From NCBI GenBank assembly GCA_964398375.1, contig CAYNNA010000002.1, positions 6,038 through 70,037 on the forward strand: a DNA stretch of 64,000 nt. The letters run 5' to 3'. How positions within the stretch are numbered: the stretch's first letter is position 1; each line of letters starts with the position of its first letter. Positions 1,623-24,411 of the stretch are shown piece by piece. Position numbers and translations under genes: made by a program. The notes under the pieces were generated by a model that did not search any database, had not been told where the DNA came from, and was given only the letters and a program-made list of their open reading frames with translations. The DNA is from an uncultured Thiothrix sp. (GTDB taxonomy: Bacteria > Pseudomonadota > Gammaproteobacteria > Thiotrichales > Thiotrichaceae).

Positions 1623-1647
1623 TAATACTTAACAATGACTAAAACCC

Positions 1648-1678
1648 AACCCAATCATCTGAAGTGATTGGGTTTTTT
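1648..1678 (+). terminator. Rho-independent terminator
   Basis: AACCCAATCA-TCTGAAG-TGATTGGGTT followed by a T-run. Confidence 0.75.
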
Positions 1679-1751
1679 GTTTGCGTTCAGGATTGAACTT
1701 ATAGAATGCCCTAACATTCTAAATGCATAACAAAAAACAGGGCAGATCATA

Positions 1752-2369
1752 ATGGGCAATATTAAAGCAGCACTGCTATTGGGTGCAGTCACTTCTGGAC
1801 TCGGCGGATGCGCACCAATGGGTTCATACCCGCAAACCGCGCAATACCCGTATTGGAACCACACGGTTCCGGGGGTTTACCAAAACCAAGCACGACCTTA
1901 TTTCACCAGTTATAATCAACCATCAATGTCGCAACCGGCATTTTCACAACAATACCAACCGTTTTCACAACAAACTGAACCTTATGACGCCCCCGCTAGA
2001 CGCGCTTTATTGGCCCAAGCGCATCAGGCCCTAGGCGTGCGCTACACCCTTGGGGGTGAAACCCCGCGCGAAGGCTTTGATTGCAGTGGTCTGACCCAAT
2101 ACGTCTACAAAAATGCCCAAGGCATCACCCTCCCCCGCACCGCAGCCGAACAAAGTGCCGCTAGTCGTACCATTAGCTTTGAACAAATGCGCCCCGGTGA
2201 TTTAATTTTCTTCCGTACCAGTGGCAGCAAAGTCAATCACGTGGGTATTTATATCGGGCGTGGTGATTTCATCCATGCGGCATCCGGTGGCAGCAAAGTG
2301 AGTATTGACAAGCTGAGTAAAACCTATTGGCAACAACGTCTTGTCAAATTTGGCGCTTTTATTGCTTAA
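1752..2369 (+). CDS. NlpC/P60 (C40) peptidoglycan endopeptidase lipoprotein
   Basis: Lipobox LGGC; GFDCSG catalytic Cys, HVGIY and FIHA motifs; Gln/Pro/Tyr-rich linker. Confidence 0.9.
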   Translation: MGNIKAALLLGAVTSGLGGCAPMGSYPQTAQYPYWNHTVPGVYQNQARPYFTSYNQPSMSQPAFSQQYQPFSQQTEPYDAPARRALLAQAHQALGVRYTLGGETPREGFDCSGLTQYVYKNAQGITLPRTAAEQSAASRTISFEQMRPGDLIFFRTSGSKVNHVGIYIGRGDFIHAASGGSKVSIDKLSKTYWQQRLVKFGAFIA

Positions 2370-2448
2370 AATTAAAACAAACATGAACCTTTCAACAAGA
2401 TTTGCCGACTGATCGTCAGGCCGATTGTTAATTTTGGCTGAATAGCGT

Positions 2449-19178: not shown

Positions 19179-19315
19179 GATTAAGTAAACCCCATGTTAT
19201 CGTAAGCAGCAGCACAAGCCTCGCGCCAACACTGCCTTTTCCCCAATTCGTTATGCTTGGAAAACCAATATGTTCTTTAAGTTCCCTTTTCGCTATTATT
19301 CCATCCTTTTGCTGA

Positions 19316-21247
<1,932 letters not shown>

Positions 21248-23621: not shown

Positions 23622-23647
23622 GCGCTTCTGTTCATCATTTCCCCTCG

Positions 23648-23674
23648 AAAAGCCCCGTTTGTCGGGGCTTTTTT
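23648..23674 (+). terminator. Rho-independent terminator after hisD
   Basis: AAAAGCCCCG-TTTGT-CGGGGCTTTTTT. Confidence 0.85.
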
Positions 23675-23733
23675 GTTCACTGCAAAAAGTTCACCATAAT
23701 TGCAAAAAATTTGCAGAAAACCTTCAAAACCCC

Positions 23734-23762
23734 TTTACATTAGCAAGTGCTAATATTATTAT
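23734..23762 (+). promoter_or_regulatory. sigma70 promoter with palindromic operator in the spacer
   Basis: TTTACA-17 nt-TATTAT; ATTAGCA-AG-TGCTAAT at 23739-23754. Confidence 0.65.
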
Positions 23763-23809
23763 TATCCCATACTGAAACTTTCCAAAAACATTCGCTAGGA
23801 GATGAAATT

Positions 23810-24295
23810 ATGAAACTGCAAACTATCGCTTTCGCTGCCCTGATCGCTTTCGCTGGTGCTGCTTCTGCTGACTTCACTGATGGTTTTGACAACGGTTCTG
23901 CTACTGGTCAAGGCGCTGGTCAAGGCACTGCTTCTACCAGCGGTCAAGGTACTGGTTACGGCACTGGTAACGGTGACGTAAACGGCTGGGGTCGTGGTAA
24001 AGGTGATGCTGACGGTGAAGTGGATTTCGCGATCACTTTCAAAGGCAAAGGCCGCACTAACATGGATACCGATATGGCTGCTAACGGCAAAGGCAACGGT
24101 GACTGGTACACTGCTGGCAATGGTTATGGCTACGGCAATGGTACTGGCAACGGTTACGGCTACAACAACTTTGCTGCTAACGGTGCTAACAACGGCTTCG
24201 CGCCAGCAATGATGGCTCCACAAATGCCAATGGCAATGCCTGCTGCACAAGCACCAGTTGCTGCTGCTCCAGCCGCTCCTGCTGCTGCTCAATAA
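23810..24295 (+). CDS. Secreted Gly/Asn/Tyr-rich protein, probable sulfur globule envelope protein (SgpA/B-like)
   Basis: AGGAGA SD; Sec signal ending AASA; DGEVDFAITFKGKGR core; GNGYGYG repeats; MAPQMP..PAA tail; strong bias to T/C-ending optimal codons. Confidence 0.65.
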   Translation: MKLQTIAFAALIAFAGAASADFTDGFDNGSATGQGAGQGTASTSGQGTGYGTGNGDVNGWGRGKGDADGEVDFAITFKGKGRTNMDTDMAANGKGNGDWYTAGNGYGYGNGTGNGYGYNNFAANGANNGFAPAMMAPQMPMAMPAAQAPVAAAPAAPAAAQ

Positions 24296-24321
24296 GACTA
24301 ACGCAAGCATCACAGTTTGCT

Positions 24322-24349
24322 AAAAGGCATCCTTCGGGATGCCTTTTTT
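24322..24349 (+). terminator. Strong Rho-independent terminator
   Basis: GGCATCC-TTCG-GGATGCC-T6, preceded by A4. Confidence 0.9.
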
Positions 24350-24411
24350 GGTTTATTCTCCGCACTTTTACCGTATTATCCCGCTTTTAGCCGCTAACAC
24401 ACGAATCCTGC

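Follow-up and report, generated by a model that had tools for sequence, protein, structure and literature searches.

The precursor protein of 161 amino acids encoded at positions 23810 to 24295 of the window (the whole stretch of 64,000 nucleotides that was analysed) is very probably a structural envelope protein of periplasmic sulfur globules, namely the Thiotrichaceae short form of the SGP family. The gene, called sgp here, is a further member of a known coat-protein family and is unannotated in databases. Thiothrix species are major sulfide oxidisers of springs, caves, symbioses and wastewater plants (bulking), and their sulfur globules are an energy store. The genome is a Thiothrix MAG of 2.94 Mb that is 98% complete; the closest relatives of the protein are all from Thiotrichaceae, the best being that of Ca. 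Thiothrix namsaraevi with 96% identity. A search of this MAG for 16S rRNA had no match, and the identity of the organism is taken from these relatives. The genome contains dsrA (606 bits) and also encodes AprA, SoxA, DsrE2 and DsrE. A role in sulfur globules is supported because the organism possesses rDsr, which oxidises stored sulfur, and because the presence of the family follows that of dsrA.

Gene structure and transcription unit

The coding sequence and its flanking signals are as follows.
23647..23679, plus strand: intrinsic terminator of the upstream gene hisD, a GC-rich hairpin (23647-23673) with a T-run
23734..23762, plus strand: sigma-70-type promoter-like site TTTACA-17-TATTAT (10/12 match)
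23740-23753, plus strand: dyad TTAG-N6-CTAA inside the promoter spacer
23797..23801, plus strand: Shine-Dalgarno sequence AGGAG, 8 nt 5' of the ATG, read directly
23810..24295, plus strand: sgp coding sequence (ATG 23810, TAA 24293-24295)
24322..24353, plus strand: intrinsic terminator 3' of sgp, a UUCG tetraloop hairpin (24322-24347) with a T-run

The neighbours of sgp are hisD on one side and psd/pyrE on the other, none of them a sulfur gene. With a promoter that looks strong, a good ribosome-binding site and a terminator at either end, sgp constitutes a transcription unit of its own. The monocistronic layout that the earlier note had read from the letters (terminator, promoter, Shine-Dalgarno sequence, UUCG terminator) is present in all its parts, and both hairpins surpass 200 shuffled sequences: none of the shuffles was as stable as the hisD terminator hairpin (-18.1 kcal/mol, z = -4.0) and none folded as well as the UUCG-loop terminator (-17.8 kcal/mol, z = -4.95). 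The hisD terminator, which closes off the sgp unit at its 5' end, is fully conserved in Ca. T. namsaraevi, and the UUCG terminator is identical in sequence in the ortholog of that species. The 5' UTR of sgp has no stable structure when its folding is compared with that of shuffled sequences (z = 0.17).

The gene order murA-hisG-(353-aa ORF)-hisD-sgp-psd-pyrE is common to this genome and Ca. T. namsaraevi, and T. fructosivorans and T. lacustris are among the others that have the hisD-sgp-psd arrangement; orthologs of sgp occupy the same place, in hisD-sgp-psd-pyrE, across species of Thiothrix. Substitutions relative to the Ca. T. namsaraevi ortholog number 20, 3 and 3 at codon positions 3, 2 and 1 of the plus-strand frame, which is therefore the coding frame. 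An antisense ORF of 172 aa (23795-24313, minus strand) overlaps sgp entirely and can mislead simple longest-ORF gene calling. There is a negligible probability that this ORF, although slightly longer than sgp, is the real gene or that the region is non-coding low-complexity DNA, because not only the substitution pattern but also the Shine-Dalgarno sequence, signal peptide, promoter and terminator belong to the plus frame, which has an extreme codon adaptation index (CAI) and more than 150 homologous ORFs. It is the repetitive, GGT/GCT-rich sequence of the coding strand that gives rise to the spurious antisense ORF.

Features of the predicted protein

The coding sequence is divided as follows.
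23810..23869, plus strand: Sec-type signal peptide MKLQTIAFAALIAFAGAASA (residues 1-20, predicted cleavage between ASA and DF), read from the sequence
23870..23896, plus strand: mature N-terminal motif DFTDGFDNG (family consensus [DE]F[FT]DGFDNG)
Residues 30-59, plus strand: G/Q/T/N-rich spacer
23987..24067, plus strand: conserved core WGRGKGDADGEVDFAITFKGKGRTNMD (residues 60-86), which aligns with the GDFNMSMGGGGRG core of Beggiatoa Sgp
24116..24166, plus strand: Gly/Asn/Tyr repeats GNGYGYGNGTGNGYGYN of the GNGYGYG type, including GNGYGYGNGTGNGYGY (residues 103-118)
24200..24292, plus strand: Met/Pro/Ala-rich tail (residues 131-161), repetitive and of uncertain length

Each feature that had been listed from the sequence beforehand (Sec signal, G/N/T-rich repeats, core, GNGYGYG repeats, Met/Pro/Ala tail, no Cys) was found. 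The signal peptide, assigned by reading the sequence without a dedicated predictor, has K2 followed by 15 hydrophobic residues, with ASA as the cleavage motif before Asp21, and is kept in all 35 aligned homologues. The mature protein of 141 aa (13.8 kDa, pI 4.2) is 23% Gly, 18% Ala and 10% Asn, with six Tyr, six Phe, two Trp and no Cys; its GRAVY of -0.59 makes it hydrophilic, similar to the validated Beggiatoa Sgp (-0.49). In the family alignment, D24, G25, F26, N28 and G29 of the N-terminal motif are almost invariant, and the core, which contains DGEVDFAITFKGKGR (residues 68-82), is the sole strongly conserved block, with W60, G61, G65, A67, G69, E70, F73, F77, K78, G79 and K80 invariant. 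The FFDGFDNG motif and the core are likely interaction modules, since only these are conserved family-wide and the tails vary freely.

The earlier note had also described a Gly-rich N-terminal extension of about 45 residues; the extension exists but its length was overstated, as the distance from cleavage site to core is 47 residues here versus 18 in the validated Beggiatoa Sgp, an excess of about 29, and the bridging proteins described below have spacers of in-between length. At the other end of the protein, the length of the tail is uncertain because the assembly of the Ca. T. namsaraevi ortholog breaks in the same repeat, where a run of N marks a scaffold gap within its Ala/Pro tail (L004:5478-5600); the tail of the MAG copy may be collapsed or shortened by repeat-driven assembly problems. 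AlphaFold2 with the 35-sequence alignment gave no confident fold (pLDDT 40.8, pTM 0.14), so that any mechanism of assembly is purely inferred. A profile search of the PDB returned the eL29 tail and the GR20 dipeptide repeat, which are compositional matches only, and found no relative.

Membership in the SGP family

The protein scores 29.8 bits against the Pfam model SGP (PF17228), for which the gathering cut-off is 26.7, and the best stretch aligns residues 87-161, the low-complexity C-terminal half with the Gly/Asn/Tyr repeats and the tail, to profile positions 20-93. A six-frame search of the genome with SGP gave 32.7 bits for the sgp frame. Because the margin over the cut-off is small (3 bits) and the protein is of low complexity, extra controls were brought in: shuffled sequences, the Beggiatoa Sgp and bridging proteins. 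Six global and four segment-wise shuffles that kept the composition had no SGP match at E <= 10, and the experimentally supported Beggiatoa Sgp and the short paralog of sgp scored 27.7 bits and 27.4 bits, respectively. A search with the family profile against 1.84 billion representative proteins found only 69 relatives at E <= 1e-3. Among the bridging proteins, which match both families, P0065 has an E-value of 4.5e-9 to the family profile and 40.7 bits to SGP, and P0078 and P0069 have 29.0 and 27.5 bits to SGP; the family-profile E-values of the three range from 4.5e-9 to 1.3e-5. Bridging-protein cores (DGEMDFSMTFKGRGR, GDFKMTFSGRGK) are intermediate between DGEVDFAITFKGKGR and the Beggiatoa core, and the core type DG..DF.[MI][ST][MF].G.GR is present in sgp, where DGEVDFAITFKGKGR aligns with DGSGWGDFNMSMGGGGR of Beggiatoa. 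A direct profile-profile comparison (hhalign) of the family with three Beggiatoaceae Sgps was not significant (E 0.11 over 11 columns), so that the case for homology depends on the Pfam model and the bridges.

The protein is small, Cys-free and rich in Gly and aromatic residues, with a Met/Pro/Ala tail, as is usual for SGP, and its Tyr and Pro contents are far below those of Beggiatoa Sgp. With PF17228 passed, shuffled sequences failing and bridging proteins matching both families, the proposal of the earlier note that the gene encodes a divergent Sgp is supported as far as Sgp is concerned, but the gene is no oddity, being the typical short form of a paralog family with five members in this genome. 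The expectation that automated pipelines would call the protein hypothetical was accurate: its homologues in protein collections are unnamed or 'hypothetical protein' with no precomputed Pfam domain, and a search of NCBIfam found no model matching the sgp protein. Other matches were compositional and below the cut-off, namely Pfam TrAA12-like (24.2 bits, cut-off 30.9), KRTAP and an NCBIfam serine-rich protein. One distant match, a much larger protein of 425 aa (P0071), has the family core KVNGWGAGKGDADGEIDFASSFKGK in its middle and an end that looks LysM-type; it may have arisen by true recombination of domains or through a fusion made in gene calling.

Comparison with known sulfur globule proteins

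Globules of Thiothrix have a protein envelope, and periplasmic sgp genes, in varying number, are predicted in almost all globule-forming Proteobacteria (PMC10386293). For Thiothrix caldifontis, six sgp genes are cited from Dahl's review (PMC10386293), and its genome has exactly six members of the family, which evidently has been counted as sgp already; Thiolinea disciformis has two members, versus one stated in the same paper (PMC10386293). The published Thiothrix sgp genes, which are predictions, are almost certainly the same family and show no difference of substance. No experimental study of an Sgp from Thiothrix turned up in the literature, and the review of the pangenome of the genus is silent on these proteins.

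Experimental evidence comes from Beggiatoa leptomitoformis, whose Sgp (ALG67575.1; sequence from the supplement of PMC7356093) is disrupted by a transposon in a globule-less strain, was detected by mass spectrometry, is needed for globules and is induced tenfold by thiosulfate (PMC7356093). The sgp protein resembles it in domain order, size (141 mature residues versus 127), pI (4.2 versus 4.4) and Gly/Ala content, and the cores align (DFAITFKGKGR in Thiothrix with DFNMSMGGGGR in Beggiatoa), but the alignment is gappy, with about 31% identity overall, and Beggiatoa Sgp has a WWG N-terminus and a long Tyr/Pro/Ala repeat tail of its own.

With the proteins of PF17228 (SgpA and SgpB of A. vinosum and relatives), which for A. 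vinosum were compared by description and not by sequence alignment, the sgp protein shares a Sec signal, a small, Cys-free, low-complexity mature protein rich in Gly and aromatic residues, an acidic-then-basic core (D-G-x-x-D-F-x-hydrophobic-[ST]-hydrophobic-x-G-x-G-R), an Ala/Pro-rich C-terminus, monocistronic organisation and an rDsr-containing, sulfur-storing host. It differs from them in precursor size (approximately 15.8 kDa, versus 13 kDa for SgpA and 12.6 kDa for SgpB), in a longer G/N/T/Q spacer before the core, in having far less Tyr and Pro and more Asn, Thr and Asp, and in its own [DE]FFDGFDNG motif and Lys-rich core FKGKGR. The A. vinosum Sgps have been described as extremely hydrophobic, whereas the Thiothrix protein is hydrophilic.

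Codon adaptation and predicted expression

With weights derived from 33 ribosomal and EF genes on contig C4, where the ribosomal protein cluster was located via EF-Tu, the CAI of sgp is 0.864, which ranks first among the 2376 ORFs of the genome. The 33 reference genes range from 0.68 to 0.85, and no ribosomal protein gene of the genome matches sgp in codon optimisation. Simulated genes encoding the same protein had a CAI of 0.613 +/- 0.031 with genome-average codons and 0.769 +/- 0.029 with ribosomal-protein codons, the observed value lying above the latter with P = 0.0002; the neighbouring hisD, psd and pyrE have CAI values of 0.585-0.67. The strong optimal-codon bias reported in the earlier note is thereby given a rank and a value, and its suggestion of very high expression is strongly supported at the level of codon usage, by comparison of the CAI with the simulations: sgp is probably very highly expressed. 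The list of highest CAI values also includes AprA, DsrE2, SoxA, DsrE and a DsrL-like protein, all confirmed by NCBIfam, and two paralogs of sgp. A self-consistent (Carbone-type) search for codon bias, in which sgp came at rank 1686, settled on an axis that had nothing to do with ribosomal genes and was rejected as a measure of expression.

Paralogs and their neighbourhoods

Besides sgp, the genome has four paralogs.
C35:23013-23471, plus strand: short form
C1:31705-32538, minus strand: long form with C-terminal helix
C149:~1647-2438, plus strand: long form with C-terminal helix
C43:~1644-2150, plus strand: divergent form with Tyr/Pro-rich tail

The long forms (approximately 265-277 aa) end in a predicted helical Gln/Ala/Lys C-terminus SFEQIQKQMEMQRAQADAFFKKVEEQR that recurs in many relatives, and neither they nor the C43 paralog had a match in a search with Pfam SGP. 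The short form to which sgp belongs is the commonest and best-conserved form of the family. SgpD of A. vinosum, reported only in Chromatiaceae, is coiled-coil-like and the most abundant globule protein; compared by description, the helical Gln/Ala/Lys-rich ends of the C1 and C149 paralogs recall its proposed coiled coil, and the sgp protein has no such segment. The Sgps of A. vinosum have distinct roles, SgpC acting in expansion and SgpD being dispensable, and the Thiothrix paralogs differ in their tails, both of which would fit a role for sgp unlike that of SgpA/SgpB, as a periplasmic accessory in sulfur handling, for example as a nucleator or a carrier, acidic and disordered, with affinity for polysulfide or cations while globules grow or are mobilised. 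The acidity of this Sgp-related protein and its conserved Asp-rich core would suit such a function, but Cys and other residues that bind sulfur are missing from it, a codon optimisation beyond that of ribosomal proteins is more in keeping with a structural component needed in stoichiometric amounts than with a factor, and its form is the prevailing and best-conserved one of the family; this alternative is accordingly considered very improbable, and a structural coat component is the preferred reading.

The neighbourhoods of sgp, of the C1 and C43 paralogs and of the C28 locus consist of housekeeping genes only, and a search with Dynamin_N brought up nothing but generic matches of GTPase size. 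At the C28 locus, two adjacent secreted low-complexity proteins are encoded (C28:18713-19177 and 19237-19929), the first of which (154 aa, MMAPPMGAP repeats, no Pfam match) has the second-highest CAI in the genome, 0.832; it may be a further component of the globule coat, its Met/Pro/Ala repeats resembling the tail of sgp. In T. fructosivorans, one of the eight family members is on the 153-kb plasmid pTfr153 (L019, 5001-5375), a short form of 124 aa without the Met/Pro/Ala tail.

Distribution of the family and its association with dsrA

The family is restricted to Thiotrichaceae and tracks dsrA. It is found in 88 of the 107 genomes of the order, representing seven of the eight genera, with one to ten matches per genome. 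When dsrA was searched in the same genomes and the two tables were merged, 56 of the 71 high-quality genomes had both the family and dsrA, five had the family without dsrA, three had dsrA without the family and seven had neither (that is, 56/59 genomes with dsrA have the family and 7/12 without dsrA lack it), counts to which no P-value is attached because the genomes are related and not independent. Joint absence of the family and dsrA occurs in three genera (g1, g5 and g8) and includes two near-complete genomes within the genus of the MAG itself; such repeated joint loss is as expected for a role tied to stored sulfur. Genus g5, presumably Leucothrix, lacks the family in all eight genomes and dsrA in seven, three of these genomes being large and complete (complete members are approximately 5 Mb). 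Leucothrix is filamentous and rosette-forming, and stores no sulfur. Homologues that are common in taxa that do not store sulfur, which the earlier note had named as evidence against its reading, were looked for, and homologues are not common there.

This distribution bears on whether the protein might instead be an abundant exported structural protein of some other surface structure of Thiotrichaceae, such as a sheath, holdfast or rosette cement, or a periplasmic or outer-membrane matrix, with its likeness to Sgp due to convergence among Gly-rich proteins. Limitation of the family to one family of filamentous bacteria, its weak match to Beggiatoa Sgp profiles and the five high-quality genomes that have it without dsrA would all be compatible with such a structure. 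Its absence from a genus that is probably the filamentous, rosette-forming Leucothrix would not, nor would its loss together with dsrA within genera g1 and g8, and convergence of composition does not account for an SGP match that shuffled sequences do not reproduce or for the sequences that bridge to SGP. Another surface structure is thus judged improbable, and the envelope of sulfur globules remains the preferred location.

Model of the globule coat

In the proposed model, the sgp precursor would be exported by Sec and cleaved after Ala20, and the acidic, Cys-free mature protein, predicted to be intrinsically disordered, would build up to very high levels in membrane invaginations or the periplasm. 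Assembly with the four paralogs could then form a thin protein coat between hydrophobic zero-valent sulfur and the aqueous phase. The likely sites of contact with sulfur, or of self-interaction, are the scattered aromatic residues and the short amphipathic core VDFAITF, which lies between acidic and basic Gly-rich segments, and the variable tails (Gly/Tyr, Met/Pro/Ala, and the helical C-terminus of the long paralogs) probably set the properties of the coat.

The Thiotrichaceae proteins could also be viewed as a distinct, self-contained Sgp subfamily with a fixed N-terminal module, swappable tails and a promoter block shared by short forms, a possibility regarded as rather unlikely. The module of such a subfamily may consist of the signal peptide, FFDGFDNG, a spacer and the core GKGDADGEVDF.ITFKGKG, and its tails may be of Gly/Tyr, Met/Pro/Ala, MPWNNNN-repeat or helical C-terminal type. 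The understanding of sulfur globules is unchanged by the finding of sgp. The clean definition of the family, the codon-based prediction of expression and the conserved promoter block provide targets for proteomics and reporter fusions, and the family can be used as a marker gene for sulfur-storing Thiotrichaceae in metagenomes and metatranscriptomes.

Conserved promoter block

The intergenic region upstream of sgp differs from that of Ca. T. namsaraevi at three of 188 positions (98% conserved), compared with 20 of 161 third codon positions. Within it, the block CTTTACA-TTAG-N6-CTAA-TATTA is almost invariant in the short-form sgp genes of many Thiotrichaceae, and of 72 family members in other genomes, 29 have CTTTACATTAG-N6-CTAATATTA in their upstream region, against an expectation of 0.0095 per 160 nt. 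As judged from its sequence and recurrence, the block could be a candidate operator for a sulfur-responsive regulator that co-ordinates synthesis of the coat, and perhaps of soxXA, with the supply of sulfur. Covariation of the TTAG-N6-CTAA dyad across the upstream regions was no better than in shuffled sequences, for which reason the operator is put forward only as a lead. A position-weight scan of the genome with the promoter block also matched, perhaps as a sign of common regulation, a 20-bp perfect palindrome, AAGAATATAATTATATTCTT (G000:C156:3-40), which lies upstream of a gene for a secreted c-type cytochrome (a SoxX-like reading) that is followed by SoxA, the latter confirmed by NCBIfam.
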